Source of the DNA: Cyanidioschyzon merolae
Lineage: Eukaryota
NCBI GenBank assembly: GCA_000091205.1
Contig: AP006492.2
Reading direction: 5' to 3' (one strand)
Length of the DNA stretch: 64,000 nucleotides
A model generated the notes under the pieces. That model was given only the letters and a program-made list of their open reading frames with translations. It had not been told where the DNA came from and searched no databases. The position numbers and the translations under genes were made by a program. How positions within the stretch are numbered: position 1 is the first letter of the stretch; the number at the start of each line of letters is the position of its first letter. Shown here piece after piece: positions 5,154-57,606 of this stretch.

Positions 5154-5225
5154 AGGAGGCAGTCGGATTTGAACCAACGACCTATCGGACTGCAGCCGAT
5201 TGCTCTACCACTGAGCTATACCTCC
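5154..5225 (-). tRNA. tRNA-Cys (anticodon GCA)
   Basis: Reverse complement reads GGAGGTATAGCTCAGTGGTAGAGCAATCGGCTGCAGTCCGATAGGTCGTTGGTTCAAATCCGACTGCCTCC plus discriminator U. Cloverleaf with 7-bp acceptor stem, D-arm GCTC/GAGC, anticodon loop CU-GCA-GU, T-arm GTTGG/CCGAC with TTCAAAT loop. A T-rich run follows the 3' end on the coding strand. Confidence 0.85.
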
Positions 5226-9226: not shown

Positions 9227-9706
9227 GCAGAGACTCTACACGGCGTACGGTATGCTCAGGTTAGGAACAAAGCAAGCACCGCGGAGACGGAGGTATGCTT
9301 GTGTGACGTGATTCGTCAATGGGTGCGCTTAAGTGACGAGTATCGGGAAAGCGACAAGTTCTGCAAGGAAACGCAACCCTACAAAAGAACTGTACGCCCT
9401 GCCTGCAAGTTTCGTTCTTCTTTAGGGACTCCCTGACGTTTCTTCCACGAATTGCTGTGCTAGTTCGTCGAACTCTGTCTCCGGCAGCGCTCTTAGAGTG
9501 TTTGCGGGAACGCAGCTGTCTGCGATAGTGCTGGACAAACGCGCAGGTGCCAGTAGAGCCAGTGTCCACCGAAAGCTCCGTGTGTCCTCGTATAGGAATT
9601 CTAGGACTGGCCAATTGATTCTGATAGTGGTTGTCTGGTTCATGAAGAACGACCGAATAAAAGCAAGCGGATCAGTTGCTGACATTTCGTGAAAAATGTC
9701 CTCAGT

Positions 9707-11506
9707 TATATCGATTAATGAAACGAGATTATTGTTCAGCAACTGCGTGGGAATACCATGCCTCGCGTGTCTATCCACACCGCTTCGTCCGCTCTAGATT
9801 GCCGAACGTGCCATACCAGTGACCGGCCTCGGGCAGCAATCCAATGCCTTGTCTCTGGGTCACTGGTTCTGCTCATCGAGAGTGCTCAGCGCCTCAGGGC
9901 AGTGCTCAAACCCAGTCCCAGACGAACTGATCGAATGTTCGCTCGACCCACAGCCGCTGGACGCCCCGGGAGCACGGAACATTGCCGGATGCTGATCGAC
10001 AGGTTCATGTCTCGGTACAGAAAAGTGCTTGCGCGCCTGGTTGCTGGTGCAGTTCCAAGGTGGCAAGCCTCTCGCCTTCGATTGCCTCGCCATCTGGCGT
10101 TCGGCCAGCATACCGCACACGGTATCGTGCATCCGACGCTGGTCCCGGCTCGTGTGCTCTACCGGTTTCAGCATGCATATGTTCTAGTCAGGCGCGTACG
10201 TCGTCATGAGGGCGTCAGTGAACGACCTTCGAAATCGATGCCTGCACTCACTTGAAGCGCTCTTCGACGGGGCACTGGAGCAACCGATGTTTGCTGGAGG
10301 ATGTTCATCGCGGTGGGCTACCACTCAACGACGCGACTTGCCGGTCGTTCCCTTTCCACAACCGCTGGACTAGGTGCCGAGTGCAAGACTACCGGCCTCC
10401 GCACAGACGAAACTGCAGGCTATCCGAGCACAGCGCCAGACACATCTGCCGTCGATTGTCTGTACAGGTCAGTCGCACGCTCGTGTGCTCTCTGAATGAC
10501 GCGCATAAACGCATCACCGTCTGCACAGTACAATACGACGCTGAGAGCGTCGCGATGCGCCCTGATGCCGTCATTCCACTTTGTGGTATGTCGCCTGGCG
10601 TCCATGATGCCCGGGCCCCGATGATGCCGCGCTCTGGAAGAATCCTGTCGCGGTGCCGATGGTGTCCCGAGCAGCCGCTGTGCTGCCGCACGAAGGTTTG
10701 ATCGAGAACGTCGAGGCGGGTAAGGACAGCTGGCTGCCGTGCGTACGGAACGCGCTCGAACAGCCGCTCGACGAGATGCGCTCCAGCGAGAGAGACGAGG
10801 GAAGCGCGAGCAAGTCGGCACACACGAAGCTTGAGGCCATCAGCGAATCTTTTCGTTTGGCCGTTGGTAGGCGACTGAACGGCTGCGTCACCACAAGCAC
10901 CGGTACTGCCGCCATTCAAGCTTGTCTCTTGTGTATGAAGTGCAGCTCGCGTCTCTCTGAATGCCGATACAAAGCTGTACCGGTTATTCCGAGAACAGTC
11001 TCATCCAGTGAGACGAAACCCCGTCCCTGCTGGAACCAGTGTTTGTGTTTCATGGGGAAGCTTAGCGAGCGAAGCTTAACGGGCGAGAGCTGCATACGGA
11101 AACATACTTCTTAGTACGAGTTCGTGTCTCTTCATCAATGCTCGTCTCAATAGAGCGGAAACTTCATATCCTGTCGCTTCTTTGACAAAACTGGTCAGCA
11201 AAAGTATGCTATAGAATGCGTTGTCGAGTGAGTGCGCAGCCGTATAGACAGCGTTTGCGAGGATCAGGGTAGGGTGCACGGCATCCGTTGCACGGACGAC
11301 GAGGACAGAGGATTCATCCGCCTACTGAGCGTAGAGTGACCGACTTGGACCAGTAATGTCGTTATCTCGCCAGCTAGCAGCGACAGCACAGAGTCTTTCC
11401 AGGACCGCTTCTCAAACCGAATAACACGTCCCGTTTGCTGAGTACCTGAAAGTAAAATAGTCTCAGATAATGTACTTGAACGTGTGTTCCGGAATTCTCT
11501 GATCTG
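9707..11506. repeat. Inverted repeat, left arm (1800 bp)
   Basis: Reverse-complement match to 16137-17936 with exact mirror symmetry. ORF pairs 9758-10255 / 17388-17885 and 11076-11279 / 16364-16567 are near-identical; every coordinate pair sums to 27643. About 97-98% identity is implied by a few amino-acid differences per ORF. Confidence 0.9.
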
Positions 11507-16136: not shown

Positions 16137-17936
16137 CAGATCAGAGAATTCCGGAACACACGTTCAAGTACATTATCTGAGACTATTTTACTTTCAGGTA
16201 CTCAGCAAACGGGACGTGTTATTCGGTTTGAGAAGCGGTCCTGGAAAGACTCTGTGCTGTCGCTGCTAGCTGGCGAGATAACGACATTACTGGTCCAAGT
16301 CGGTCACTCTACGCTCAGTAGGCGGATGAATCCTCTGTCCTCGTCGTCCGTGCAACGGATGCCGTGCACCCTACCCTGATCCTCGCAAACGCTGTCTATA
16401 CGGCTGCGCACTCACTCGACAACGCATTCTATAGCATACTTTTGCTGACCAGTTTTGTCAAAGAAGCGACAGGATATGAAGTTTCCGCTCTATTGAGACG
16501 AGCATTGATGAAGAGACACGAACTCGTACTAAGAAGTATGTTTCCGTATGCAGCTCTCGCCCGTTAAGCTTCGCTCGCTAAGCTTCCCCATGAAACACAA
16601 ACACCGGTTCCAGCAGGGACGGGGTTTCGTCTCACTGGATGAGACTGTTCTCGGAATAACCGGTACAGCTTTGTATCGGCATTCAGAGAGACGCGAGCTG
16701 CACTTCATACACAAGAGACAAGCTTGAATGGCGGCAGTACCGGTGCTTGTGGTGACGCAGCCGTTCAGTCGCCTACCAACGGCCAAACGAAAAGATTCGC
16801 TGATGGCCTCAAGCTTCGTGTGTGCCGACTTGCTCGCGCTTCCCTCGTCTCCCTCGCTGGGGCGCATCTCGTCGAGCGGCTGTTCGAGCGCGTTCCGTAC
16901 GCACGGCGGCCAGCTGTCCTTACCCGCCTCGACGTTCTCGATCAAACCTTCGTGCGGCAGCACAACGGCTGCTCGGGACACCATCGGCACCGCGACAGGA
17001 TTCTTCCAGAGCGCGGCATCATCGGGGCCCGGGCATCATGGACGCCAGGCGACATACCACAAAGTGGAATGACGGCATCAGGGCGCATCGCGACGCTCTC
17101 AGCGTCGTATTGTACTGTGCAGACGGTGATGCGTTTATGCGCGTTATTCAGAGAGCACACGAGCGTGCGACTGGCCTGTACAGACGATCGACGGCAGATG
17201 TGTCTGGCGCTGTGCTCGGATAGCCTGCAGTTTCGTCTGTGCGGAGGCCGGTAGTCTTGCACTCGGCACCTAGTCAAGCGGTTGTGGAAAGGGAATGACC
17301 GGCAAGTCGCGTCGTTGAGTGGTAGCCCACCGCGATGAACATCCTCCAGCAAACATCGGTTGCTCCAGTGCCCCGTCGAAGCGCGCCTCAAGTGAGTGCA
17401 GGCATCGATTTCGAAGGTCGTTCACTGACGCCCTCATGACGACGTACGCGCCTGACTAGAACATATGCATGCTGAAACCGGTAGAGCACACGAGCCGGGA
17501 CCAGCGTCGGATGCACGATACCGTGTGCGGTATGCTGGCCGAACGCCAGATGGCGAGGCAATCGAAGGCGAGAGGCTTGCCACCTTGGAACTGCACCAGC
17601 AACCAGGCGCGCAAGCACTTTTCTGTACCGAGACATGAACCTGTCGATCAGCATCCGGCAATGTTCCGTGCTCCCGGGGCGTCCAGCGGCTGTGGGTCGA
17701 GCGAACGTTCGATCAGTTCGTCTGGGACTGGGTTTGAGCACTGCCCTGAGGCGCTGAGCACTCTCGATGAGCAGAACCAGTGACCCAGAGACAAGGCATT
17801 GGATTGCTGCCCGAGGCCGGTCACTGGTATGGCACGTTCGGCAATCTAGAGCGGACGAAGCGGCGTGGATAGATACGCGCGGCATGGTATTCCCACGCAG
17901 TTGCTGAACAATAATCTCGTTTCATTAATCGATATA
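16137..17936. repeat. Inverted repeat, right arm (1800 bp)
   Basis: Mirror of 9707-11506. See left arm. Confidence 0.9.
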
Positions 17937-19586
17937 TCTACGGATATCGCGTAAAGTGTACAGCAAGTATTCTTGTTAATACCCGTGTCAGACTAACACC
18001 GAACGGGTCTACCTAATGAAACGCGCCTGCAAAGTTTCGAGACGCTTTCAACATCCATCAGCACCAGCTTCCGCGGGCTTTGTCTGCGACTGCTTCCTTT
18101 TCCTCTGTATTATTTCCAGCTTTTAGTATGTCAGACTCTCGCGTACCTGCAGCATTGCTGTCAGAAGTCGATGGATGATGATGATCGCGTACAAGTCCCG
18201 AGTTCCTAGTTTCCGTTAGTTGCCAACGGATTCGAGACTCATACGGAAGTTGCGATCTACGCTTCGCTTGCCATTTTCACCTTCTTTTCATAGAGTCATA
18301 CTGCTCCCTGCATAGTGATGAGACTTGCCTTGGACAGGTGTTCCCCCAAGTCCATCAGATCTCCTTGACTGAGGGCTATACTCTAGCGCACGAAAGCTTG
18401 CTTCGCCATTCGATACACGCCCTCTGGCGCGGCAGCGCGAACCCTCGATGCCACCCTCCGTCTGTGCACCCCGTCGTCGTAACCTAGAATCACAGGGGTT
18501 TCCTGGGTGATCCCATTAGCGAGTATGCTCTCTGCCACCCGTGCACGAGCACGCTCCCTCATTCGATGAAGGATTCGGGAAATGCGGTATTGTCCATGAT
18601 GAAACAAGAAGTACCGTTTGGAAAAATCTGGTCTCTACAAGGAGCAACGGAACTTCGATCCGTCTATGCTGCCATCTCGCAAAACAGTGACCCTCTCTCT
18701 AGTGAGTGTGTTTGTTGGAATGACTGAAGCTGGAGTTCAAGGCCCTTTTACGTGCAAGCAGATGAAAAGGGAGCCTCTTGGAGCAGATCCCGTGAGATCT
18801 ATAATGCTGCTCTCGGATGCTGCTGCGTCGATGAGCGCAACGAAAGGAGTGTATGTCCTGCGAACAGAGCCAATTATTCGATGTGAAATGTTCAGTAAAT
18901 TTTTGGTATGGGCTTGTGAAAAGGTCGTCAATAAACGAAGCGCAGCGGTTTTTGTGGTCACTTGGGCGGCATGAATCGCCGTGCCAACCGTTTGCCTTGA
19001 AACCAAAACGTTGAAAACTTGACGCATGCGTGATTCGAGCGCGCCGCACGTAGAGTAAAGAGAAGCATGGGGGCTTGTGCATGTGACTCAGATAATGAAA
19101 TCGATTATTTTAAGAACACTTGTTCCGGAGCATGGCAAATCATGGTCATTCCGGTGACGTAACAACTTCCAGCGGCGAGGCGTTGAGGAAGTCACCCCGA
19201 AAAGACGACCATTCATCGATGAATTAGGCGTAAAACGTATGCAGGTATTGCTGCACTCGGAATCTCGCGGCTTTATATCCTAAAAAATCTCGGGGAAATT
19301 TGAATATCGGGAACAGAGATACCAGGTGAGAGCTCCATGTAGGTCTCGTTAAGCTTTTGGGCAAGAATAACCAGGGTCCCGAGCGGCGCCTCCTTATCTG
19401 TCCGCGGGATCCTGCATATCAGCGATACCGCAAGTTCGAGCATTTAACTGCTCCACATTGTTTCTGGACGCAAGATCCCGTTGCGAGCCCACGACATGCG
19501 ACAACGACGGCAACAACGGCAATCAGCATTACCGCGACGAAGATCGGCACTGCCCTCGTCAGGAGTGATGGCACCTAGCTGCAAGT

Positions 19587-21761
19587 TCAAGCACGGAGGT
19601 CTGGTCGCTCTCGGCCAAGCTCCGAGACGATTCCACAATAGAGAAGAGCTGCGCGCCCAATATCTGCCACAAAACTCGAGGCAAGTTCCCCAACAGCTTG
19701 AACGTCTCCGTCATTGGGGGCAACGTACTTTTCTAGGTAAACGCGCAGGGTCGCATCCGCTGAACTTGTCCCGCTGAGCCGCAGAACGGCTCGCATCCTC
19801 CGATCAGATGAGAAAAACAACCGTACGCCCTGGTTTCGCGCCCAGGAGCCATCCACTGGATCCTGGTAATGAAATACATCCGCGGCATAGAGCTGTGGTC
19901 CATCGATACGCAAGCTGAGGATTTCGCCGCCTTCGACCGAGCGTTCTAGGTTGCGCATCCAGCGCTCGGCTGTGGTCCGTTCGATTCCGTGAAAATCCCA
20001 GCGCTCGTAATAGTTGCGTCCGTAGTGAGCCCAGTGTGCTCGAACAATATCCTCAACACTTGTGCTTTTCGATCCCGGAGCGACTTGGAGATTATGGTAC
20101 GCCAAAATTGACAGCCAAAAAAGAATAGCCCACAAACCATCTTTCTCTCTGATATGAGCCCCGCCCGCCCCGCAACTCTCCTCTCCGCATAGAGAGACCA
20201 GGCCCGCGTCGAGCAGATTGCAGAAATATTTCCACCCCGTGGGCGTTTCGTAGCACCTAATATTATGGCGTGAAGCAACGACGTCAACAGCAGAGCTCGT
20301 CGGCATCGAGCGAGCGACGCCTCGAATAAGGCCACCATCAAATCTGCAGTATGCGGCAAAATCCGGTCGAAGTGCGTAATCCAACATAATCGCCAGCGAG
20401 TCTGATGGTTGCACGACGAACTTACGCCCGAGAATAAGATATCGGTCACCATCGGCATCGGAAGCAGCGCCAAAGTCGGGTGAATCCTCATCGGAAAAGA
20501 ATTCGGCAACCAAGTCTGCCAAGTTCTCCAGATTAGGTTCCGGATGAACGCCACCAAAGTCGGGGAGATACTGACCCCGCCGGAACCAGGGATACTCCCA
20601 GTACCCGAGTTTTTCGCCAAAAATCATGAACGCAAACGGACCAGTCGATCCATACATCGCATCGTAAACCATGTTAAAGTTTGGGAGACGCAAGAGCGCT
20701 CTTAATCGTTCAAAATGAAATATACCTTCCATCAGCTCCACGTACGTTGCAGTGGCATCAACGAGGTGGATTTCAAAAGTCCTCCCGCCATCCGAGTGTG
20801 GGAGTCTGTCCGGATTCGGGGACTGGAGCGCATCGCGAGCGCCCTCCGGCAAGATCCGAAAACGGTGTACCGTTTGGATCCGTTTGAAATTGACACCGTC
20901 GAACCCGTCCCGGCCACAGAGCGCCTCCGGATCCGACGCCTCCACCTCTAAATATCTAGATATTGTCAAGGTTCTCTCGTAAATTAGGGACGTAAATGAG
21001 TCCGGCGCTGGACCACCGTTTTCCATATTGTACTTGACACCCCAGTCGCCATCAACACCGCCAGGGTTGTGGCTCGCCGTCAGGGCGATCCCGCCCAGGG
21101 CACCAGCAGCTCGAATCGCCGCACTGATAGCGGGCGTCGTAGCGATAGCGTCCGGTCCGAGCACGATCAGCCGCTGCAGGCTGTTGGCGGCAGCGATGCG
21201 GAGCAGTGTTCGAAGGGCAGCCTGGTTGCCCTCGCGGCCGTCGCCACCGACAACGAGTGTTGCCCGGTTGAGGCACGTGCGCCCGTATCGCTCGACCAGC
21301 ACATCGAAAAGGGATTGAAACCAGTTCTCGAAAAAGTTTGGTGTCTGTGTTACCTCACGTGTGCGCTTTCGTATGCCAGAGGTGCCCGTCTTCTGACCAG
21401 GTATCGGTGACGTTGGAACCTGGACAACGCACAGCGGTGTGCTTTCCTCGTACACGACGGTTTCTTGGTGGAACAGATCACTCCAGTCGATTGCAGAGCA
21501 TCGGATTTTGCTGCGTTCGAGTCTAGAGGTTTGATTCGGTTCCCGTTTGCCTGCAAACTTGCGGCGACGCCACGCGCTCTGGCACAAGTAAGAACTTGCC
21601 CTGGTTGGGTTCCAGTAGGTCCCGCGCGCCAGCGTTGCTCGTTTCGGCGTGTAGTTCACGGTAAACGCCAGGCACGGAAACCAGCCGCACTCACAACGAG
21701 GCGCCAATCTGCCGTAAGTTACGCAGTCCATCCCAGTGGATGCATCCTCGATTGAAACCAT
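19587..21761 (-). CDS. Phosphoglucomutase (alpha-D-phosphohexomutase superfamily) with N-terminal extension
   Basis: 724-aa ORF. Active-site loop TASHNPGG, GQKTGTSGIRK phosphoserine region, and characteristic PGM blocks (FGAASDADGDR, GEESCG). About 125 extra N-terminal residues rich in R/S/T/C. Confidence 0.85.
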   Translation of the reverse strand: MVSIEDASTGMDCVTYGRLAPRCECGWFPCLAFTVNYTPKRATLARGTYWNPTRASSYLCQSAWRRRKFAGKREPNQTSRLERSKIRCSAIDWSDLFHQETVVYEESTPLCVVQVPTSPIPGQKTGTSGIRKRTREVTQTPNFFENWFQSLFDVLVERYGRTCLNRATLVVGGDGREGNQAALRTLLRIAAANSLQRLIVLGPDAIATTPAISAAIRAAGALGGIALTASHNPGGVDGDWGVKYNMENGGPAPDSFTSLIYERTLTISRYLEVEASDPEALCGRDGFDGVNFKRIQTVHRFRILPEGARDALQSPNPDRLPHSDGGRTFEIHLVDATATYVELMEGIFHFERLRALLRLPNFNMVYDAMYGSTGPFAFMIFGEKLGYWEYPWFRRGQYLPDFGGVHPEPNLENLADLVAEFFSDEDSPDFGAASDADGDRYLILGRKFVVQPSDSLAIMLDYALRPDFAAYCRFDGGLIRGVARSMPTSSAVDVVASRHNIRCYETPTGWKYFCNLLDAGLVSLCGEESCGAGGAHIREKDGLWAILFWLSILAYHNLQVAPGSKSTSVEDIVRAHWAHYGRNYYERWDFHGIERTTAERWMRNLERSVEGGEILSLRIDGPQLYAADVFHYQDPVDGSWARNQGVRLFFSSDRRMRAVLRLSGTSSADATLRVYLEKYVAPNDGDVQAVGELASSFVADIGRAALLYCGIVSELGRERPDLRA

Positions 21762-21855
21762 GCACTCCCTGGGACGTGCACCCGTGCGGCTCGCCCGCAG
21801 CTGCTGCTACAGAGTGCAGCGAATGAACGCGTAGTCTACAAATCCCAGTACGCGT

Positions 21856-22908
21856 TTACGACTTGTCGATCCGAACGCCGTTCGAAATTCGAACGACGCC
21901 AGCAGTACAGTAGTGGCGAGAAGCCCGACCTAGACTAGTCGTCATTAACCAATGTGCAGACGTCCTCGTCTTTTTCGACCGGCCCCCGCTACTGCTCCCT
22001 TTTTTCTCATATAGTTCCACTTTGAGAGATTGTCCAGCAAAGTTCGCGCTTGTCCAATCTGGTGGTCTCTCCTCCAGCACCGCACATCTCCTTATATTGA
22101 TGGCGGCGTTAGAGTCACGATTCACAAACTCCATCCGTTTCTTGCCATCACTGGTTGCACTTACTAATGCAAAGAGTCCACGAACTTTCGCCCTCCTTTC
22201 CATTTGCTCTTCTGTTAGCAGTCCGTACTTTGCTATATCCTCAGGGCTCCTCTGGCACTTTTCCATCTCGACTCTCTGAAGTGTACAACCCAGCTCGTGG
22301 TGTGTGTAGGACGTTCGGAACTCATCTACAGGTATCGTGACGAAACGCCTTGTGCACTCCTTGTACAACCTTGTCGTTGGAGCTGGTGTACACCCTTTTT
22401 GAATCTTCCATCGCCCTGCTGCGTACGCTACTACGAGCCTTTGAGTCTTGTCCTCTTTGAGGGCACTCAACTGATTGAAAAAGTTGGCGAACGCCTGCTG
22501 CTTACCACAATACAGATTCATTCGCAAACGAGCCCATCGGGGCTTTGTATACTCCTCCCAGAGTGCATCCCAATGGGCAACGCGAACTTCCATAAATTTC
22601 CGAAAAGCTTCAAAGTCCGCACCTCGGCTCGTCATCTCGCCCAAAGCTTCCAGGTGATCCTTCATTCCTGAATTCCAAGTCTCGATTTTCTTCCTCGCAT
22701 TCATTATACCGGATTCTCGATAGTATCTTGCTCTCGAGAACCTCATCAGACGCATGTCTTTCTGACGTAAGTTACCATCAGCGCCATCTTCTGCACGCTT
22801 CGGTGCTGCGATGGTTGTGATATTCGTATTCCCAGGGTCCGCGCCACCGACAAAGTCGTTATCTTGCACTTTCTCGGTCACAGGACCCGCCCTCCTTCTT
22901 TTCTTCAT
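21856..22908 (-). CDS. Fanzor/TnpB-like RuvC endonuclease, C-terminal catalytic half (RuvC-I, RuvC-II, Zn-ribbon remnant, RuvC-III)
   Basis: RuvC-I: [27 protein letters not shown] (GxDxG...DG). Bridge block: [29 protein letters not shown], where TnpB has LeYKa..G..v..Vdp.yTSq.C. RuvC-III: [14 protein letters not shown], where TnpB has DaDvNAAiNI. Zn-ribbon reduced to H/C remnants. Canonical RuvC-II Glu position reads VVAYAAG. Confidence 0.55.
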
Positions 22909-23075
22909 GCTTCACCGCGTCAATGGCAAGGTAGTCATCCTGCACCACCGGCGTCGCAGGATCCGCCTCCTTCTCATCTTCATCCTTCGCCGCGCCGACG
23001 ATAAGGTCGTTATCCTCCACCTCCTGCATCACAGAATCCTCCTCTTTGTTTTCTGCATCCCTCGTGACGGGCGCG
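22850..23075. repeat. In-frame 66-bp (22-codon) tandem repeat inside Fanzor-like ORF, about 3 units
   Basis: Units encode ..[24 protein letters not shown] / [25 protein letters not shown] / [21 protein letters not shown]. The last unit runs into the RuvC-I motif. Copy 2 has 4-5 units (33545-33835). Confidence 0.75.
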
Positions 23076-24584
23076 GCCGAGGGCGGATCTGGACGATCTT
23101 TCTTCAACCGCCGATAGAGTACACACGTGGCTACTCCATCGGTTTCGATCAACCCAGCAAATACCTTTTGTTTGCTGACTTTGAGACGTTTGAAGTCGAA
23201 GATACTCTTCCAGTACGTCTCCCGGTTTTCACCGATGAAGTCCTCCCTGCTCACATCGAACTCCGGACAGATCTCCCTCATGATGCCGTAAAGGACGCCT
23301 GAATCGATAGTCACGAAATGTGACTTGATATTGCACATTGGAACGCCGTTGAAGCGCTTACCCATTAGGAAAGCCTTCCGTCTCTCCCACTCTTGATTTG
23401 TCTCTTCACTCAGCTTCATCTCCGCTTCGCGTTCGAGCTCTCGGTCCAGAAACACGAAATATCACAGGATGAGGCGGTAGTATCTTTCCTTATCTTTTTT
23501 CAACTCTGATCAATTTTCTGCCAAATTCGCCAGCCCCAGGACTGCACGATACTCTTGGATAGCCGCACGGATTACAGAAGCTTCATTTGCGCTCCTGCGT
23601 GACGCCTTCTTATCGACAAACTCGATCTCAACTTCATACTTGCGATCTTTCATGATGCCATTGATAATCGCCCATTTTCCGTTGCGAGCGATGCCCGGGT
23701 AGAGTGTACCCACCGCGCGTATCATAAAACGTTCGAGGTTCACTGTCAAATGGTTCTTCAGACTCGTGGTGTACTTTTTCGCTCCGTATGCCTAAATATC
23801 CGAGGCACCCCTGTATCGATTACCTTCGAAGCGGAATTCCACCAAGTTTTCGTGGAGGGCGTGCACTAGCACATTTTCCTTCAGCGCTTCCGCTGTGCCA
23901 AGCATCAGGTGACGAATAAACGTCTTGTCGAAAAACTCGTCAGGAATCTCGACTGTTTCCGTGTGCGTCACGTCGCGATACATCTCCCTCACCAAATGCA
24001 TCAGTACTGACGACGCCTTGACAATACTCTTGGAGTACGAGTCGACATGGTTTCTGATAGCGTCTCGCAACTTTTCGTTGCACGGATCCTTGATATGTTT
24101 AAGAAGGAAGGTTTTCACCACCATCTCGTCGTAAAGTCGTCTTTGTTGCAGCCTTCAACGTAGGGCCTCCCCTTTCGGTTCTTCTTCTCTCCCTTTTCTT
24201 CTGGACTCGGCACTGTTTTTTGTTTTTTTTTCTGGCAGCCGGCGACCCTGGGCCTCCAGGATCGTGGACTTGCTTTTTCATAGCTTTCCTTTTTTAGTTT
24301 TTTTTTGAAAAACAACGCTCTGTGAACGCTTCTGTTATATACTGCGAAAAAAAACTTGAACACACTTGTTTGAGGTTTGAAAGAAAAATGAACTAAAAAA
24401 CTGTACTCTGCTAAGACCTTAACGGAAATCCAATTTTTCCAGTAGAACAACACGCTACTGATCAGGATCGCGTTTCCCTTCAACGGCGGCATTCGCATCG
24501 TGTCAGTAGACTGGCCGATCTCCGAGGTATCTCGGCGTCGATCTGGTCGTGGTGAGCAAAACGCCGGGTACAAAAACACCGATA

Positions 24585-27500
24585 ACAAAACAAACTAGTC
24601 GCAAACTATTTATTAAAGAACAACTATCTTAAAGACCCACACACCACGCCCGCCTTAGAGGTCTAGTTTTTCCGGAGAAGCTCTGAAAGTGGGTTAACGC
24701 GGGGTGCTTGGGCGACGGCGAAGGAAGCCCACGCCAGGGACCTTGACCGCAACGAACGGAGGGGCGGCGGCAGTAGCACCAGAAAATGTTGACGAAAATC
24801 CTGATTAGTCATCCGCCCCTCCCGAATCAACGCTGCAGGTTCGGGCGCAAATCTTGGATCGATCCTCGGACTCGGGCTCCGTTTTACCTCCTACCTTGGC
24901 TACCTACCTCAACTTTGGGAACAATTTCGGCGGATACTTTGGAAGACGGCTGGCAGTATGTTCACTGTCGAAGCTGGAATAAGCGGCTTGCCCGCCTATG
25001 TGTTTGGGGAGCGGATACGTAGCCGCTGAAAGGGTGGTTTGCAGACTGTTCCCAATTGTTGAGGGGAGGTTAAAGCGTCGGGCAAGATAAAGGTCGCATT
25101 CGAATCGACCTTGACTAGCGTACATCTGATTCTACGCTAGCGCTGCGGCAGACGCTCAATGAACGACTGGAATGCAGGAGGCGCTGGTGGCATGTGCGAT
25201 CACACACGCCATGGAGGGTGCATCTCAATCGACAACGTATCTCTCGAGTACCGCAGCGTTAATCCTATTCCCTTATGCGCTACGACTCGATAGGTTTCGC
25301 ATCATGGAATATTTGTGGGATCGCCTCGGTATTGAACTACGAGATATCGAATTACCAGTACAGTAATGAAGAACTGATACAAGTCGAGGACTGTACAAAA
25401 GGCAAAAGAGACCCAACCAGACACGGAGAAGGAGACACAGAAACCTCATGATCCACCTAGATGCAAAATAACCAGAGAATGTAGCTCAGGAAAGAACCCG
25501 ATGAAGAAGAAAACCAACAAGAGAAAAACAGAAGAATAGGAAGAAGAACTCCCGAACGAGTCCACAGGCGGGGGCTCCAGCGAACCCATCACAAGTCGTC
25601 CCCGAAAGAGCACCCCAGCAGGAACTCAAGAAAGCCGTCGCCAAACCGAGTCACCTACTCACAGCGCTGAAGATCCGAAAAGCCGTGCATACAAATCTTT
25701 AGACCAATTGGCACGCGAGTTTGTAGATGGGAATCAGAAGTTGCCGGAGAGCTGGGACTGCTTGCACCAGAACGCAACAGTTGCAAACCTCAGTGCCTGA
25801 AACGACGTACCAATACCCGGATTGACGAGCGCCACCGACTCTATCAGATCGTCAACCACACCGCCATACGCGCCAACGCTGGAGACAAGGAAGCGAAGGC
25901 AGTCCTAACGGCGCTACAGGCACAACATGAAGAAGCTATCAAAAGAAAGAAGAAACTTTCCAGAGAAGACAAACGAGAGGATCGAAACCGCAAAATCGCC
26001 TCCCTAGCGAAATCTATGCTAGAGAGCACCAACGAAGATGAGACCTGGCGCTACATTCGATCGAGACTGGACCCACCAAAAAAGTGCTTGGGGCTCACAC
26101 CAATCGTTTATGAGGAAGTGCTGAGGACGGAGCGTGCCTCAGTGAATGAGGCCTGGACGGACCACGGCACAGAGCTGCATGAAGACGCAACTGGGAACTG
26201 CCAAGACAGAATCTATTGGCACCAGTATGCCGCAGAACTACCGCGCCTCGAACCGGTACCGGAATGGAACGACCCAATCTTCTGGCCTGAATCTGTTCGG
26301 ACCGTGCTATGCTCAAGCAACCGCAAAACACCTGGCATCGACGGTATCGCGGCGGAGTGGATGAAACTGGTGATCCCAAAAGACGGGACAAGAGGGACAC
26401 TATCGATACCAGATGAACCTGACACAAGCTTAGGCAAACGCCTTGTGGAGCTCATCCAACGCATGTTCGAAGAGGCGTACATCCCGGATTTATGGAGGAC
26501 TGCCGAGGTCGTACCGATCCTCAAAAAGGACTCCGACGTACACAAACACAGACATGAACAACTACCGGACTATTCGCCTCATCCCGTCAATCATGAAGCT
26601 ACTTTGCGCCATTCCCACGAACCGGACTCAGAGAGGCCTCGTGGAACGCAAGTTCTTCGCCCCAGAACAGGCTGGATTCCGGAGCCACGAGGAGTGCATG
26701 AGCCATGCCCTGACCCTAACTGAAGTGGTGCAACGTCGCTCCATTAGCGGCCAACAACCAGCTTACGTATGCTTCACCGACTTTCAAAAGGCCTTTGACA
26801 CGGTCCCGCACGAGGCTCCATTTCTCAAGATGGAACGAGCCCAAGTCTCCGGAAAGTGCTTAGCGTTCTTCCGTGCGCTCTATGCAGACTCATGGATGCG
26901 CATCCGACTGGGCGACCGCTCAAGAACCCCTTCCAGAAGAATCCGCCGTGGACTGCGGCAGGGCGAGCGCGCATCCCCGCTCCTTTTCAACATCTTCATC
27001 AACGATCTGCTGAACAACTGCAGACAATACGGGCTTGAGGTGCCGTGGATAGACTGTGGAGATACCCGATGAGGAGCTCTCACATAGGAACCGCCTCGCA
27101 GGCCGTCTAGTTGCGGACGATGTCGTGCTGTTGGCACCCGCCCCGGAAACGCTTGCGGGTAGCATGGAACAAGTCAGCGCCCGGGCCGATCGCTGGGAGA
27201 TGAGCATAGGAGCATCGAAGTGCGGCGTCATGGTCATCCATGGAGACTCGCAGAGCATTCGCAATCGCTCGTGGCGGTTGCAGAATCAGGAAATTCCGAT
27301 CGTGGAAAAATATCGCTACCCGGGGGTCTGTCTAACGCCGACGCTCGACGAAGAGGCACACGTCGACGAGATGATCGCCAAGATGCATAGACGTACAGCG
27401 ATCGCACGTCCATTCCCATCCGACCCCTCTATCTGCATAGCAATTCGTACCAGGGCACGAAGGATGTGTATCATCCAGCCTGCGACCTGGGGTGCTGAGT

Positions 27501-28878
27501 GGTGCGGCATGAACCACACAAATGCCTCACGTCTGCAGATAGCCGCCAACATGGCAATGCGACTCGTTGTTGCTGTTGGATGCTCAATGTAGAGCAGAGC
27601 AACCACCGCGCTGGCACTCGGACTTGAACTCCAAATAGCCTCGACAGAGGCGACAGCAGCAGGTTGCCGGGCACGCATATGGGGCAAAGGGCCAACTATG
27701 AACACCTGGTTCGATCGGATATCCATGCAGACCCCAACGCACCGCAAGAACACTTGGATGAAATCGACGCAGATTTGGCTGAAGCGCCTCTTAGGGGACA
27801 ACACGCTCCCCAATCGTTCCCCAGGAATGTAGAAGACTTCAGACGCCTCAAGCGAACGGTCCAAACAACAATTTGGGAACGTAGACACGGAACCAGTCGC
27901 GCCAGTAACGCCGGCTTAACTCTATACCGGAACTACAACCTAGCATACACATGCAAGTACTGGTGGGAGGCGCTGGAATTCCCGGGACTTGCTCGAGGTA
28001 CCCAGTGGCTCGCCAAAATCCGCGTTGATGGCTTCTGGCTAGCGGCACCGGCTCTAAACCATATAGGGACACTGGAATCGCACTGGGAGTCACACTGTCC
28101 CTGCTATCGAGACGAAATCCCCGAGACGCTGACATATTTAGGCTTACAGTGCCCGCGCTGGAAGCAGGAGCGCAGCGAGCTCCTTGAAGGACAGCAGCAG
28201 CTGGGCATCACCATGATAGCCGAGGGCCGGACATTCACTTTGAGTGCAGCACTGGCAACTGATGGTCCGCTAACAGATCCTCAGTGCTCATTAGTGGCCA
28301 ACAAACTCACATGCTACGTTCTAGGCATGAGGTCCAGCGTATCGGATGCGCACACGGGCCCAGTGCGCTTTCTGCGCCCACCTTTTGTGGTGGGTGTCAA
28401 GCACAAATCCGCATTTCCAACCGACGACAACGCATTCCATGCATGATCACGAAGGAGAGAGGCGGCTCCCACGATATATCCTAACAGTCAAGTTTCTCCA
28501 GCGTGTCGTGCAGCGAAGGCAAGCCTGCATCCGCAGACTGTCCGAGCACAAACTGACGACGAGACTCGATTCTACGTCGGGTGAAGCACACCTCGAGCCG
28601 ACGCCCTTTGTGGTATAGAAAAGCCGTTCTGTCTCCATGATGCATCTGTACCAAAGGTAAAGACGCTATTGCGGATAATTAGGACAGGTTCTGGGCACAC
28701 GATAGGACGTATGAGATGACCAGAATATCTGAGACGAAGTATAGGTAATGGAACTTGGGAGTAGCCTGTTTGATGGATACTTCACGGCGCACTGAAAAAA
28801 AGAGAAAAAAGTAAGAAAAGAAAAATGCGCGTGATCGGAGAACGCTGGCCTAAGTAAACGTTTTGTCAACGAAAAAAC
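24585..28878 (+). mobile_element. Non-LTR (LINE-like) retrotransposon, copy A, degenerate (frameshifted)
   Basis: RT motifs across three frame segments (26016-26723, 26443-27072, 27056-27592): NYRTIRLIPSIMKLL, FRSHEECMSHAL, QGERASPLLFNIFINDL, LVADDVVLLA (FADD-box variant), CGVMVIHG. C-terminal Cys/His domain HCPCYRDEIPETLTYLGLQCPRW at 27664-28446. A-rich 3' tail region. No apurinic-endonuclease domain recognisable. Confidence 0.8.
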
Positions 28879-28926
28879 AAATACCGCCCCAGCAGCGCCT
28901 GGGCGGACAAGCGGCCGCGATCCGGC

Positions 28927-29144
28927 GCAATCGCCGGAAAGCTCTGCGCCGCTGCAATCGCCGGAAAGCTCTGCGCCGCTGCAATCGCCGGAAAGCTCTG
29001 CGCCGCTGCAATCGCCGGAACGCTCTGCGCCGCTGCAATCGCCGGAACGCTCTGCGCCGCTGCAATCGCCGGAAAGCTCTGCGCCGCTGCAATCGCCGGA
29101 AAGCTCTGCGCCGCTGCAATCGCCGGAAAGCTCTGCGCCGCTGC
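28927..29144. repeat. 27-bp minisatellite, about 8 units (gcaatcgccggaaagctctgcgccgct)
   Basis: Seen directly. Immediately 3' of LINE copy A. Absent at the equivalent junction of copy C. One frame reads RRAFRRLQR repeatedly. Confidence 0.9.
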
Positions 29145-29221
29145 AGGCGCGCCGGCCAGAGCGCTCTCCATAGATCCGTAACTCTTATTTTGCGTGTGCA
29201 GAGGCTAGAGCGGTACGCTGG

Positions 29222-29818
29222 ATGGAACTGTTTCGAAAAATGAAAGCTTGCAACGGCCTACTCGGTTTTTGTTCTTGGTATACGGATATCGGCAAACTGG
29301 ACTCGACTTTGCGGCAACGACGAGAACGTTTGCGTTGTCGAGTGCGGCGTGCGGTGGTAGCTGGAGCAGCGGCTTCTTCGCTCGACGGGTCGCGCACGCA
29401 TGCACGCGGGACACCAGGACACCGACTGGTGCGAGGGCAGATGCCCGCGCCTAAAATTGGGCGGCCGAAAACCGAAGTGAAGCGAGAGACCTTCCGTATG
29501 CCAGAACCGGTAAAGGAGGTCGAGGCAGAAGCGGGCGCTGTTCGAGGGCGCCCGAAAACGAAGCGTGTGACGGACACGGAGTTCGTGCCGATGTGGAAAG
29601 TGATTCTACTAGGCGACAAAGAATATGAGGAAAAGCACGTCATAGAATCGCTAGTGAAGACCATCCCAAAAATGGACAAGGAGGAGGCGCGACGAATTTT
29701 CAAAGAGGCCCAAGCTGTTGGGGAATCTGTGGTTACCGTTGTCGCTCAGGAGCACGCCGAGTTCTACGCGACGATGCTGCGGCGATGCTCGCTTTACGTG
29801 CGAATCGAACCGGAGTGA
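29222..29818 (+). CDS. ClpS-like Clp protease adaptor domain protein with N-terminal basic/AT-hook-like region (start uncertain)
   Basis: C-terminal WKVILLGDKEYEEKHVIESLVKTIPKMDKEEARRIFKEAQAVGESVVTVVAQEHAEFYATMLRR fits the ClpS fold consensus (yKVvLlNDD...A..im.evH..G.avv....E.AE). Upstream GRPK motifs: KIGRPKTE, RGRPKTKR. Confidence 0.55.
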   Translation: MELFRKMKACNGLLGFCSWYTDIGKLDSTLRQRRERLRCRVRRAVVAGAAASSLDGSRTHARGTPGHRLVRGQMPAPKIGRPKTEVKRETFRMPEPVKEVEAEAGAVRGRPKTKRVTDTEFVPMWKVILLGDKEYEEKHVIESLVKTIPKMDKEEARRIFKEAQAVGESVVTVVAQEHAEFYATMLRRCSLYVRIEPE

Positions 29819-32504: not shown

Positions 32505-32575
32505 AGCGTCCCATACCTCCGATGCTCGGGTGCTTCAAGTGCACGCACACCGCCACCGCCACCGCCTTTTACACT

Positions 32576-33896
32576 CGAACGACGCCAGCGGTGTACAGTA
32601 TTGGCGAGAAGCCCGCCTTGGACAAGAAGTTTTCAACTGCGGTGTAGACGCCTCCCAGCCCTTTTGCATCGGCCACCTACTACTGCTTCCAATCTTTTCT
32701 CATATAATTCCACTTTGAGAGGTTGTCCAACAAAGTTCTCCCGTGTCTACTCTGGAGGTCTTTTCTCCAGCACCGCACATCTCCTTATATTGATTGCGGC
32801 ATTAAAGTCTCGGTTCACAAACTCCATACGTTTCTTGCAATTGATTGTACTTCCTAATGCTAGTAGCCCTCGCACTTTCGCCCTCCTTTCCATTTGCTCG
32901 TCTGTCAGCGGTCCGTACTTTGCGATTTCCTCAGGGCTCCTCTGGCACTTTTCCATCTCGACCCTCTGGAGTGTACAGCCCAGTTCATGGTGTGTATAGG
33001 ACGTTCGGAACTCGTCTACATGTATCGTGACGAAACGCCTTGCACACTCCTTATATGTTTTTGCCGTTGGAGCTGGCGTGGTCCCTTTTTGGGTCTTCCA
33101 GTGTCCCGCTCCGTACGCTACTACTAGCCTCTGATTTCCATCCTCCTTCAGGTCACTCAACTGATTGAAGAAAATCGCGAACGCCCGCTGCTTACCAAAA
33201 TACAAATTCATTCGCAAACGAGCCCACCGGGGCTTTGTATACCGCCCCCCACAGCGCATCCTAATGTGCCATGCGAAATTCCATGAATTTCCGAAAAGCT
33301 TCAAAGTCGGCTCCTCGGCTCGTCAGCTCGCTCAAAGCTTCAAGGTGATCTTTCATTCCTGAATTCCATTTCTCGGTTTTCTTCCTCGCATTCATGATTC
33401 CCGATTCCCGATTGTATCTCGCTGTCGAGAACCTCAAAAGACGCATGTCTTTCTGACGCAAGTTGCCGTCGGTACCATCCTCCGCGAGCTTGGGCACAAC
33501 GATGGTTACGATATATGTGTTTCCGGAGTCCGCGCCAACGACAAAGTCGTTCACATGCACTTTCTGTAGGGCAGGATCCGCCTTCTTCTCATCTTCATGC
33601 TTCGCCGCGTCAACGACAAACTCGTTATCCTGCACCTTCTGTGTCGCCGGATCCGCCTCCTTCTCATCTTTATGCATCGCCGCGCCAACGATAAAGCCGT
33701 TATCCTCCACCTTCTGCGTCACAGGACCCGCCTCCTTCTCATCTTTATGCATCGCCGCGCCAACGAATAGGTCGTTATCCTCTGCTTCCTGCGTCGCAGG
33801 ATCCGCCTCCTTCTCATATTCATGCTTCGTCGAGGGCGCAGCAGAGGGCGGGACTGGACGATCTTTCTTCAACCGCCGATAGTGTACACACAAGGC
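32576..33896 (-). mobile_element. TnpB/Fanzor-like element, copy 2: 5'-truncated, frameshifted, premature stop (pseudogene)
   Basis: ORFs 33261-33893 and 32747-33304 share about 88% amino-acid identity with copy 1 (VGADSGNTYIVTIV, RLYKEC-like block, [14 protein letters not shown]). Trp->stop after RPPE. Abuts the LINE copy at 33897. Confidence 0.55.
33545..33835. repeat. 66-bp in-frame tandem repeat inside Fanzor-like copy 2, 4-5 units
   Basis: Repeated [29 protein letters not shown] units in the translation. Confidence 0.75.
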
Positions 33897-36800
33897 TACT
33901 CCATCGGTTTCCTGGTTCCGTGTCTACGTTTCCGTATTGCTGTTTGGACCGTTCGCTTGAGGCGGCGGGAGCCTTGTACATTCCTGGGGAACGATTGGGG
34001 AGCGTGTTGTCCCCTAAGAGGCGCTTCAGCCAAATCTGCGTCGATTTCATCCAAGTGTTCTTGCGGTGCGTTGGGGTCTGCATGGATATCCGATCGAACC
34101 AGGTGTTCATAGTTGGCCCTTTGCCCCATATGCGTGCCCGGCAACCTGCTGCTGTCGCTTCTGTCGAGGCTATTTGGAGTTCAAGTCCGAGTGCCAGCGC
34201 GGTGGTTGCTCTGCTCTACATTGAGCATCCAACAGCAACAACGAGTCACATTGCCATGTTGGCGGCTGTCTGCAGACGTGAGGCATTTGTGTGGTTCATG
34301 CCGCACCACTCAGCACCACAGGTCGCAGGCTGGATGATACACATCCTTAGTGCCCTGGTACGAATTGCTATGCAGATAGAGGGGTCGGATGGGAATGGAC
34401 GTGCGATCGCTGTACGTCTATGCATCTTGGCGATCATCTCGTCGACGTGTGCCTCTTCGTCGATCGTCGGCGTTAGACAGACCCCCGGGTAGCGATATTT
34501 TTCCACGATCGGAATTTCCTGGTTCTGCAACCGCCACGAGCGATTGCGAATGCTCTGCGAGTCTCCATGGATGACCATGGCGCCGCACTTCGATGCTCCT
34601 ATGCTCATCTCCCAGCGATCGGCCCAGTCGCTGACTTGTTCCATGCTACCCGCAAGCGTTTCCGGGGCGGGTGCCAACAGCACGACATCGTCCGCAACGA
34701 GACAGCCTGCGAGGCGGTTCCTACGTGAGGGCTCCTCATCGGGCATCTCCACAGTCTATCCACGGCACCTCAAGCCCGTATTGTCTGCAGTTGTTCAGCA
34801 GATCGTTGATGAAGATGTTGAAAAGGAGCGGGGATGCGCGCTCGCCCTGCCGCAGTCCACGGCGGATTCTTCTGGAAGGGGTTCTTGAGCGGTCGCCCAG
34901 TCGGATGCGCATCCATGAGTCTGCATAGAGCGCACGGAAGAATGCTAAGCACTTTCCGGAGACTTGGGCTCGTTCCATCTTCAGAAATGGAGCCTCGTGC
35001 GGGACCGTGTCAAAGGCCTCTTGGAAGTCGATGAAGCATACGTAAGCTGGTTGTTGGCCGCTAATGGAGCGACGTTGCACCCATCAATGAGGGTCAGGGC
35101 ATGGCTCATGCACTCCTCGTGGCTCCGGAATCCAGCCTGTTCTGGGGCGAAGAACTTGCGTTCCACGAGGCCTCTCTGAGTCCGGTTCGTGGGAATGGCG
35201 CAAAGTAGCTTCATGATTGACGGGATGAGGCGAATAGTCCGGTAGTTGTTCATGTCTGTGTTTGTGTACGTCGGAGTCCTTTTTGAGGATCGGTACGACC
35301 TCGGCAGTCCTCCATACATCCGGGATGTACGCCTCTTCGAACATGCGTTGGATGAGCTCCACAAGGCGTTTGCCTAAGCTTGTGTCAGGTTCATCTGGTA
35401 TCGATAGTGTCCCTCTTGTCCCGTCTTTTGGGATCACCAGTTTCATCCACTCCGCCGCGATACCGTCGATGCCAGGTGTTTTGCGGTTGCTTGAGCATAG
35501 CACGGTCCGAACAGATTCAGGCCAGAAGATTGGGTCGTTCCATTCCGGTACCGGTTCGAGGCGCGGTAGTTCTGCGGCATATTGGTGCCAATAGATTCTG
35601 TCTTGGCAGTGCCCAGTTGCGTCTTCATGCAGCTCTGTGCCGTGGTCCGTCCAGGCCTCATTCACTGAGGCACGCTCCGTCCTCAGCGCTTCCTCATAAA
35701 CGATTGGTGTGAGCCCCAGGCACTTTTTTGGTGGGTCCAGTCTCGATCGAATGTAGCGCCAGGTCTCATCTTCGTTGGTGCTCTCTAGCATAGATTTCGC
35801 TAGGGAGGCGATTTTGCGGTTTCGATCCTCTCGTTTGTCTTCTCTGGAAAGTTTCTTCTTTCTTTTGATAGCTTCTTCATGTTGCGCCTGTAGCGCCGTT
35901 AGGACTGCCTTCGCTTCCTTGTCTCCTGCGTTGGCGCGTATGGCGGTGTGGTTGACGATCTGATAGAGTCGGTGATGCTCGTCAATCCGGGTATTGGTAC
36001 GTCGTTTCAGGCACTGAGGTTTGCAACTGTTGCGTTCTGGTGCAAGCAGTCCCAGCTCTCCGGCAATCTTCTGATTCCCATCTACAAACTCTCGTGCCAA
36101 TTGGTCTAAAGATTTGTATGCACAACTTTTCGGATCTTCAGCGCTGTGAGTAGGTGACTCGGTTTGGCGACGGCTTTCTTGAGTTCCTGCTGGGGTGCTC
36201 TTTCGGGGACGACTTGTGATGGGCTCGCTGGAGCCCCCGCCTGTGGGCTCGTTCGGGAGTTCTTCTTCCTATTCTTCTGTTTTTCTCTTGTTGGTTTTCT
36301 TCTTCATCGGGTTCTTTCCTGAGCTACATTCTCTGGTTACTTTGCATCTAGGCGGATCATGAGGTTTCTGTGTCTCCTTCTCCGTGTCTGGTTGGGTCTC
36401 TTTTGCCTTTTGTACAGTCCTCGACTTGTATCAGTTCTTCATTACTGTACTGGTAATTCGATATCTCGTAGTTCAATACCGAGGCGATCCCACAAATATT
36501 CCATGATGCGAAACCTATCGAGTCGTAGCGCATAAGGGAATAGGAGTAACGCTGCGGTACTCGAGAGATACGTTGTCGATTGAGATGCACCCTCCACGGG
36601 GTGTTTGAGAGCACATGCCACCAGCGCCTCCTGCATTCCAGTCGTTCACTGAGTGTCTGCCGCAGCGCTAGCGTAGAATCAGATGTACATTAGTCAAGGT
36701 CGATTCGAATGCGACCTTTATCTTGCCCGACGCTTTAACCTCCCCTCAACAATTGGGAACAGTCTGCAAACCACCCTTTCAGCGGCTACGTATCCGCTCC

Positions 36801-37226
36801 CCAAACACATAGGCGGGCAAGCCGCTTATTCCAGCTTCGACCGCAAACATACTGCCAGCCGTCTTCAAAAGTCTCCGCCGAGACTATTTCCAAAGTTGAG
36901 GTAGGTAGCCAAGGTAGGAGGTAAAACGGAGCCCGAGTTCAAGGATGGATCCAAGATTTGCGCCCGAACCTGCAGCGTTGATTCGGGAGGGGCGGATGAC
37001 TAATCAGGATTTTCGTCAACATTTTCTGGTGCTGCTGCCGCCGCCCCTCCGTTCGTTGCGGTCAAGGTCCCTGGCGTGGGCTTCCTTCGCCGTCGCCCAA
37101 GCACCCCGCGTTAACCCACTTTCAGAGCTTCTCCGGAAAAACTAGACCTCTAAGGCGGGCGTGGTGTGTGGGTCTTTAAGATAGTTGTTCTTTAATAAAT
37201 AGTTTGCGACTAGTTTGTTTTGTCTT
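33897..37226 (-). mobile_element. Non-LTR retrotransposon, copy B (3'-truncated), same family and same frameshifts as copy A
   Basis: ORFs 35084-36100, 34981-35364, 34736-35080 and 34246-34752 mirror the copy A segments at about 95% identity. The 5' end matches copy A at 24585. Lacks the last about 1 kb of the element. Confidence 0.8.
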
Positions 37227-57029: not shown

Positions 57030-57215
57030 CACGAGCCGACGCCCTCTGTGGTACGGCAAAGCCGTTCTATCCCTGTGCAGCTTCTGCTTCAGCGGTATAC
57101 GCGCTACGACGGGTGCAACAAGGCAGGCACTCGGCACACGATAGGACGTATGAAACGACCAGCATATCCGAGAGGAAGTATGGGTAATGGAACTTGAAGG
57201 TAGGTGGTTCATCAT
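57030..57215 (+). mobile_element. Fragment of the LINE 3' untranslated tail (two conserved blocks)
   Basis: Blocks gagccgacgccct.tgtggta..g.aaagccgttct and ggcacacgataggacgtatga.a.gaccag.atatc.gag..gaagtat.ggtaatggaactt are shared with copy A (about 28590-28775) and copy C. Confidence 0.5.
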
Positions 57216-57606
57216 GGACGCTTTCCCGAAAGCCATTATCCATTCCGAATTCTGGTATCCATGGTCAATCTAAATGTTTTGTCTTCTGAGACAAAATCGA
57301 TACGTGTACGCATGCGTCTGTGCACCAAGTGTCGCTGTTGACGACATCACTAAGCGCCTGGGGGCGGGCACAGCGCGCACGCCGCCGCTCCGTGAGCGCG
57401 TGCGTGCTTCGACGCGCGTGCGTGTGTCCATCGACGCTTCACGCATTATCTCCGGCGGATCGAGTGTTTCCACTGCGAGCGCTCGCTTGCTAGCGCTAGT
57501 TTACGCAGTATACGGCGGCTTGTTGAAGAAGCTTTTTTTGTACTGGAACGTGAAGCGTTTATTATCGAGTTGGGGAAATAGTTTTTTTTTTTTTGTTTTC
57601 TAGGAC

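Follow-up and report, generated by a model that had tools for sequence, protein, structure and literature searches.

A candidate guide-RNA scaffold at the right end of a decayed CMe-1A Fanzor1 element in Cyanidioschyzon merolae

Does the DNA at the 3' end of a Fanzor-like gene in Cyanidioschyzon merolae encode a guide (omega) RNA, and is the transposable element that carries this gene a complete RNA-guided system? The question is raised by a stretch of 64,000 nt from contig AP006492.2 (assembly GCA_000091205.1), analysed here in full and referred to as the window. It contains a Fanzor-like open reading frame (ORF) of 350 aa on the minus strand, which is part of a longer gene (copy 1), and a second, related sequence (copy 2). 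An interpretation made from the letters of the window (hereafter the sequence-only reading) had proposed a guide-RNA region at 21760-21960, which would make the element a complete RNA-guided system. The present analysis identified a structured module at 22001-21865, and this is regarded as a candidate omega-RNA scaffold with a probability of roughly 55%, the would-be guide lying at about 21864-21845. The position of this module, its boundaries, its conservation throughout the family, the strand bias of its pairing and the co-variation of its hairpin arms are direct observations. Within the window the module is a relic: copy 1 has only a nuclease pseudogene, and copy 2 is fragmentary. Coordinates are collected in Table 1.

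RuvC-like motifs are visible in the ORF, the first being followed by a His/Cys cluster, and the ORF shows the RuvC D-E-D residues and the zinc-finger (ZnF)-like insert by which a Fanzor1 nuclease is recognised (D...[TS][TS]xx-ZnF...RD). The ZnF-like segment contains two His and two Cys, not four Cys. In a tblastn search, residues 19-430 of the CMe-1 protein matched copy 1 at 75% identity and residues 409-727 at 84%, in two different frames, and the overall range of protein identity to CMe-1 was 75-88%. Furthermore, a profile of the family aligned with the RuvC-II segment of the Fanzor1 protein PUl-1 (hhalign probability 85%, E 6e-6). The protein can thus be assigned to Fanzor1 from its motifs, this profile match and its near-identity to a published member. 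At the DNA level, copy 1 was 85.2% identical to the CMe-1A consensus (taken from the supplement of PMC3627910) over positions 687-2196 and 87.4% identical over 2117-3145. For most of its length the element reaches the nucleotide identity of at least 80% that delimits the CMe-1A family, though the 5' 686 bp of the consensus are absent. Judged from these alignments, copy 1 is a decayed member of the known red-algal CMe-1A Fanzor1 family. In the main-text passages of Bao & Jurka 2013, CMe-1A of C. merolae is classified as Fanzor1 with a 734-aa protein and an unknown transposon class, and is present in about 150 copies, which are roughly 80% identical to a 3169-bp consensus and have neither terminal inverted repeats (TIRs) nor target-site duplications (TSDs; PMC3627910).

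In copy 1 the nuclease gene has no intact reading frame and is a pseudogene. Its N-terminal half contains four in-frame stops, and the gene has at least two frameshifts, with a frame change near 22900; near 21960-21995, the loss of 2+1+2 nt in three small deletions puts the C-terminal part out of frame. The truncated 5' end adjoins a reverse-transcriptase-bearing repeat at 24585. Copy 2 (32575-33911) is 82% identical to copy 1 and is a 3' fragment encoding residues 379-729 only, cut at 33911 by the same retroelement as at copy 1, in the opposite orientation. The complete RNA-guided system proposed by the sequence-only reading is therefore not present in the window, given the stops, frameshifts and 5' truncation of copy 1 and the fragmentary state of copy 2. 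Decay is common in the family as a whole. A scan of hot-spring metagenomes found more than 513 related loci, of which 80 were kept, and an ORF of more than 700 aa was retained in only two of these 80. Three of the contigs (L001, L002, and L081) come from other samples and represent the locus of the window itself. No relative turned up in a scan of viral contigs. The Fanzor ORF also contains 75-bp tandem repeats at 22839-23064 and 33530-33829, which correspond to a 25-aa acidic repeat directly before the RuvC-I motif; the number of these repeats differs among copies and homologues.

The right end of the element was located by comparison among copies. Both window copies share cgaacgacgccagc, as had been noted earlier, and the presence of two TTCGAA motifs and a hairpin at the boundary of copy 1 was confirmed: the 24-nt cgaacgccgttcgaaattcgaacg occupies 21872-21895, with TTCGAA at 21881-21886 and 21888-21893, and folds without mismatch into an 8-bp stem around a 1-nt loop. 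By estimate, about three 8+8 palindromes are expected by chance in 64 kb; it is the family-wide conservation that counts. The palindrome forms the inner part of a terminal hairpin that is found at the 3' end of nearly all of about 50 non-redundant copies from hot-spring metagenomes and also in the published CMe-1A consensus. Its typical form was CACCGTTGGCGTCGTTCGA-CTT-TCGAACGGCGTTGATGGTG, and the sequences diverged immediately past its base. The palindrome is thus not an extra acquisition of copy 1, as the sequence-only reading had supposed, and belongs to the element throughout the family; a mutated form in copy 2 is still matched by the covariance model described below. BLAST similarity between copies 1 and 2 ends at 21889 because the 3' arm of the hairpin is mutated in copy 2 (TCGTTCGAGTGTAAAAGGCGGTGG). 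The limit near 21890 was therefore correctly read as the end of pairwise similarity, but it does not mark the boundary of the element, which extends about 20-25 nt further out. Among the related loci, similarity to copy 1 mostly extends beyond 21889, to window positions 21876-21863, and the published consensus ends within the 3' arm of the terminal hairpin (...TTTTGAAAGGCG), some 10-15 nt before the end found in this analysis. These alignments place the right end of the element near 21865-21871, not at 21890.

The same comparison explains the stop codon of the ORF. In most related copies, the protein ends in ...GRRLHVSWRRFV, followed by TAG or TAA in the context GTC-TAG-GGCG. In copy 1 this family stop codon is out of frame. 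The stop codon that had served as the landmark for the guide-RNA proposal does exist, but it is a frameshift artefact: the three small deletions described above shift the frame, so that translation reads through into host DNA. The segment 21760-21864 was conserved solely in the three contigs from the same locus, and it is therefore host DNA upstream of the phosphoglucomutase (PGM) ORF. About half of the interval 21760-21960 lies in the structured module, whereas 21760-21864 does not belong to the element. Across copies, the flank varies in sequence, beginning at the hairpin base. No empty-site allele of the PGM locus was available to fix the insertion boundaries, the sole other contig also being filled.

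A covariance model (R1) was built from 21 copies with a common structure, and it matched the 3' end of the ORF in every related locus that reached that far. The module covered by R1 comprises ~70 nt at the end of the family reading frame and a 3' non-coding end of ~65 nt, with the family stop codon inside. A structured 3' module that overlaps the end of the Fanzor ORF and continues to the end of the element, as suggested by the sequence-only reading, is thus found at the family level, with the coordinates revised to 21865-22001. An omega-RNA is expected to extend from the 3' end of the nuclease gene through to the right end; the module occupies this position, and similarity among copies ends at its hairpin base. 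In the predicted RNA structure, GCAGUAGU in the A-V-V codons pairs with ACUACUGU in the untranslated region (UTR) to form the long-range helix P1, which closes a junction containing a weak P2, a 7-bp P3 (GGCGUCU...AGACGUC), and P4 (GGCG-loop-CGCC). The terminal hairpin P5 (up to 19 bp) begins one or two nt after the junction. P1 is retained in 87% of alignment cells across copies, and almost no copy lacks P5, which varies in sequence and register. The fold plan of P1, P3, P4, and P5 is shared by single copies, and the RNA of the copy 1 module folds with -50.7 kcal/mol (z -2.15).

Evidence that this structure is under selection is mixed and leans towards selection. Variants of P5 maintain pairing, such as the change of CGTTCG/CGAACG to CGTTCT/AGAACG; a second subtype has the form ACGTTTTTC-TTTT-GAAAGACGT in a shifted register, outer stems differ (CACGGTC...GGCTGTG vs. 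CACCGTT...TGGTG), and three loci (L012, L055, and L076) carry unrelated hairpins at the place of P5. In a test that does not depend on alignment, the native 5' and 3' arms paired with -18.2 kcal/mol, compared with -14.8 kcal/mol when arms were swapped between copies (0/500 permutations). In the alignment fitted to the model, 85.8% of cells were paired (84.1% in shuffles, 0/500), and double changes occurred at 21 pairs (10.9±2.3 in shuffles, 0/500) and in 49 cells (18.9 in shuffles, 0/500), whereas slid partners paired in only 33-49% of cells. G·U or U·G combinations were found in 357 cells and A·C or C·A combinations in 85. The sense hairpin was more stable than the antisense hairpin in 41 of 49 copies (-20.9 vs. 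-15.4 kcal/mol). Codon positions 1 and 2 were conserved at 0.94 and position 3 at 0.83 across copies, which indicates coding constraint, and positions 1 and 2 relaxed over the last 51 codons (p 2e-8). The non-coding block CGCCACTACTGTACAC had a major-allele frequency of at least 0.9, compared with about 0.83 at third codon positions.

On the other hand, several results weigh against an omega-RNA scaffold of a Fanzor nuclease or against selection on its structure. The arm-swap effect was weak inside the main P5 subtype (18/500) and absent in the second, so that much of the arm signal lies between subfamilies. The positive co-variation counts come from the model-fitted alignment, which is biased towards the structure. 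In a plain MAFFT alignment, co-variation of the same structure was not above shuffles, and RNAalifold predicted almost no structure on MAFFT alignments; this is partly because hairpin registers differ between subtypes. The covariance analysis that the sequence-only reading had recommended across copies thus gave a positive answer with the model-fitted alignment and the arm swap, and a negative one with the plain alignment. Single-sequence z-scores were modest (-2.15 for copy 1 and -0.37 for copy 2), P1-P3 overlap coding sequence, and the third codon positions within the scaffold were not significantly more conserved (p 0.25). No Rfam model matched within 21500-22500 at E values up to 10; to our knowledge, Rfam contains no model for Fanzor omega-RNAs, so this null result weighs little. 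For the protein, no TnpB or Fanzor domain from Pfam was detected on the ORFs of the window and four long homologues, a sequence-profile search of the PDB gave no Fanzor, TnpB, or Cas12 match, and the AlphaFold2 prediction from a 46-sequence alignment had a predicted local distance difference test (pLDDT) score of 42, which is too poor for use.

An omega-RNA scaffold is favoured because the position, size, and layout of the module match known Fanzor1 guide RNAs. SpuFz1 of Spizellomyces has a conserved scaffold of 75 nt downstream of the stop codon, which spans the right inverted repeat and is followed by a variable guide of 14-15 nt (PMC10432273). The Fanzor1 omega-RNAs of SpuFz1 (about 90 nt) and PpFz1 (about 75 nt) are shorter than that of GtFz1, and they contain a 7-bp stem-loop 1 (SL1) followed by one to three further stem-loops before the guide (PMC11423790). 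As in SpuFz1, GtFz1, and PpFz1 (Saito 2023; Xu 2024), the CMe-1A scaffold would extend from at or after the stop codon to the right end, with the last stem-loop beside the variable guide or flank; its size (about 137 nt) is of the same order, and the 7-bp P3 resembles SL1. In contrast to these systems, the terminal stem is unusually long (up to 19 bp), and the 30-nt inverted repeats of the Spu element have no counterpart in the CMe-1A-like element. The fold comparison therefore agrees with Fanzor1 omega-RNAs in position and layout, whereas no sequence similarity to them was found. The CMe-1A consensus has the same 3' end sequence as the window element, including the P1-P5 blocks, likewise lacks TIRs, and shows a similar divergence among copies. 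In the main-text passages on this family in PMC3627910, no RNA or 3' structure is described, and no description was found in the literature searched; rhodophyte Fanzors are listed in surveys (PMC10530073). Right-end guide RNAs of Fanzors are established and CMe-1A is published, and what is added here is a candidate RNA module for that family.

If this interpretation is correct, the last ~140 nt of a CMe-1A copy (the codons of the C-terminal tail and ~65 nt of non-coding sequence) would fold as a sense-strand RNA, in which P1 closes the junction with P2-P4 and the long, G·U-rich P5 follows, its base forming the element boundary. The 3' end of the Fanzor transcript would be processed to yield the scaffold, and read-through into the adjoining ~15-20 nt of flanking DNA would supply the guide. 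With it, the nuclease would find and cut sites that have this flank and lack the element, as in TnpB/Fanzor homing. From the likeness to characterised systems, we infer transcription, processing, nuclease binding, and guide function of the module. A Fanzor1 family whose hosts are algae living in hot and acid habitats would then have a scaffold of about 137 nt with defined limits and several hairpin variants, which may be of interest for heat-tolerant, compact genome editors. The puzzle of Bao & Jurka, an old "non-autonomous" family that retains coding capacity, would also become testable. As regards the window, the result mainly clarifies what the locus is, a dead copy beside a housekeeping gene.

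A further and rather improbable proposal is that the CMe-1A Fanzor module spreads without a transposase of its own, its 3' module acting as an omega-RNA and RNA-guided cutting and repair being anchored at the right end. This was considered because the precise, hairpin-ended 3' module is the only constant cis feature, the 5' parts being swapped among copies (a TE-N2-like module of 635 bp, at least two other modules, or none).

The main rival to the omega-RNA interpretation, itself unlikely, is that the terminal hairpin, and perhaps hairpins at the left end, are single-stranded-DNA transposon-end signals recognised by a transposase acting in trans. It would be compatible with an omega-RNA in a dual role: in IS200/IS605 elements, the same right end serves as a DNA signal and as a guide RNA. 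In ISDra2 and other IS200/IS605 elements, the omega-RNA (reRNA) originates in the right end and shares sequence with the 3' end of tnpB, with flanking DNA as the guide. The window element resembles them in the lack of TIRs and TSDs, which the CMe-1A passages of PMC3627910 also report, and in its subterminal hairpins; it differs from these bacterial elements, with their Y1 TnpA, in that no TnpA was found in the element or window. The precise 3' end closing in a hairpin fits a DNA signal. A terminal hairpin on one strand is also carried by HUH-type single-strand transposons, which weighs against the omega-RNA interpretation; end hairpins are general in Rep/HUH transposons (PMC10288648). Small hairpins near the 5' ends of copies (for example GCGCTC-AGT-GAGCGC and GGACACGTGTCC) point in the same direction, and strand bias fits a single-strand mechanism. 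Helitron and Helitron2 likewise lack a TSD, end precisely on the 3' side with a hairpin a few nt away, and have 5' parts that vary or are chimeric; unlike them, the element here has no RepHel gene and no 5' TC or 3' CTRR termini, and its hairpin base is the end itself. Some Fanzor1 genes are carried in Helitrons, according to the passages on them in PMC3627910. However, neither an HUH/Y1 nor any other transposase was found in the element or window, and the neighbouring repeat encodes a reverse transcriptase. The search for HUH (Y1/Y2) transposases covered the element and neighbouring ORFs, which gave only RVT_1, P450, ClpS, and PGM, and did not extend to whole genomes. The non-autonomous TE-N2_CMe shares just the 5' 635 bp with CMe-1A and lacks this 3' end, so the terminal hairpin is not a cis signal common to the two. 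In addition, G·T is frequent (about 14% of paired cells), and G·T pairs destabilise DNA hairpins more than RNA hairpins. Finally, the conserved structure reaches about 100 nt upstream of the hairpin and includes a multi-helix junction, which would be unusual for a DNA end signal.

It is quite unlikely that the module has no function, its palindrome and helices being inherited from a founder copy and the apparent conservation reflecting kinship. The decay of most copies, with so few long ORFs, is consistent with such an origin, as are the null result for co-variation in the plain alignment and the fact that one 8+8 palindrome in 64 kb is within chance. Against this, arms co-vary between subfamilies, hairpins of other sequence and register occur at the same place, conservation is higher in parts of the UTR than at synonymous sites, and G·U exceeds A·C four to one. 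The least probable alternative is an ordinary 3'-UTR element of the Fanzor mRNA, acting in 3'-end formation, stability, or translation control without guide function: the module is structured, on the sense strand, and in the 3' UTR, but its end coincides exactly with the element boundary and not with a poly(A) or termination signal, it shares sequence with the coding tail, and all characterised relatives place the guide RNA here.

Two other candidates were rejected. A double-stranded-DNA palindrome or protein-dimer site was ruled out by the strong strand asymmetry of pairing, and a bacterial-type terminator was ruled out because the host is a eukaryote.

Table 1. Features at the Fanzor locus and of the right-end module, in window coordinates.
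Feature	Position	Strand	Basis or remark
Fanzor-like ORF, 350 aa	21856-22908	minus	stop codon 21856-21858
Fanzor1 (CMe-1-like) pseudogene, copy 1	21930-24232	minus	tblastn with CMe-1 protein
Family stop codon (TAG), out of frame in copy 1	21930-21932	minus	alignment of copies
Actual stop of window ORF, frameshifted read-through into host flank	21856-21858	minus	
Candidate omega-RNA scaffold/right-end module, copy 1, 137 nt	21865-22001	minus	R1 97.3 bits, E 4.7e-23, full model length
Same module in copy 2	32555-32692	minus	R1 100.1 bits; inner terminal hairpin destroyed, outer stem kept
P1 5' strand GCAGUAG, coding (A-V-V)	21989-21995	minus	pairs with 21907-21913 in minimum free energy (MFE) and centroid folds
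P1 3' strand CUACUGU	21907-21913	minus	within most conserved non-coding block CGCCACTACTGTACAC
P3 and P4 region	21915-21971	minus	in copy 1 weakened by mutations; MFE fold pairs this stretch otherwise
Terminal hairpin P5 (5' arm 21889-21902, loop 21886-21888, 3' arm 21871-21885)	21871-21902	minus	contains palindrome 21872-21895
Flank directly 3' of hairpin base, host DNA; putative guide position (15-20 nt) if module is an omega-RNA	21845-21864	minus	similarity to other copies ends here; guide role inferred
Host phosphoglucomutase gene, downstream of element, same strand	19587-21761	minus	Pfam PGM domains

The best named relatives of the PGM protein are from Cyanidiococcus yangmingshanensis (69% identity) and Cyanidium caldarium (51%). 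The transposon DNA (21897-24504) is 85-87% identical to the C. merolae consensus, compared with 68-69% between the adjacent PGM protein and its closest relatives. This gap could reflect horizontal transfer or a consensus effect.

No left end or target-adjacent motif could be defined from the copies, whose 5' ends belong to several unrelated modules. The start of many copies lies near consensus positions 638-703, beside the small hairpin GCGCTC-AGT-GAGCGC (window 24504-24530), and heterogeneous 5' ends were seen in L012, L028, L005, L029, L046, L038, L064, and others. The modules upstream of Fanzor copies also differ, and one of more than 500 nt is common to four loci. A TE-N2_CMe-like 5' module, which corresponds to ~580-635 bp at the start of the CMe-1A consensus, occurs without a Fanzor gene at 40720-41285 and 56704-57286, both on the minus strand, and fragments of it are located at 28576-28764 and 62082-62285. 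The upstream flanks of TE-N2_CMe-like copies contain a common GAT and T-rich motif, with a small palindrome before it.

The repeat next to Fanzor copy 1, which in the opposite orientation truncates copy 2, is about 4.3 kb long and contains reverse-transcriptase fragments. It lies at 24585-28877 and, inverted, at 33912-37223, with a third occurrence at 61968-64000 and an RVT_1 domain at 26443-27592, and is probably a decayed non-LTR (non-long-terminal-repeat) retroelement. Inverted arms at 9696-11506 and 16137-17947 (99%) hold remnants of a second, distant Fanzor-like gene, which are 33-38% identical to CMe-1 residues 453-664. These arms end about 100 nt past the expected stop, and their terminal stretch (17765-17936) folds into two long stem-loops (z -2.3). 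They flank a cytochrome P450 gene (13145-14821), which is included in a direct duplication (12312-15984/45916-49540; 99-100% identical, spacing about 33.6 kb). A tRNA gene (5154-5225, minus strand) was the only match in the window at the Rfam gathering score. Near an ORF with a ClpS domain (29222-29818), a tandem array of a 27-bp unit extends over 28868-29191, with nine overlapping copies of a 108-nt reference.

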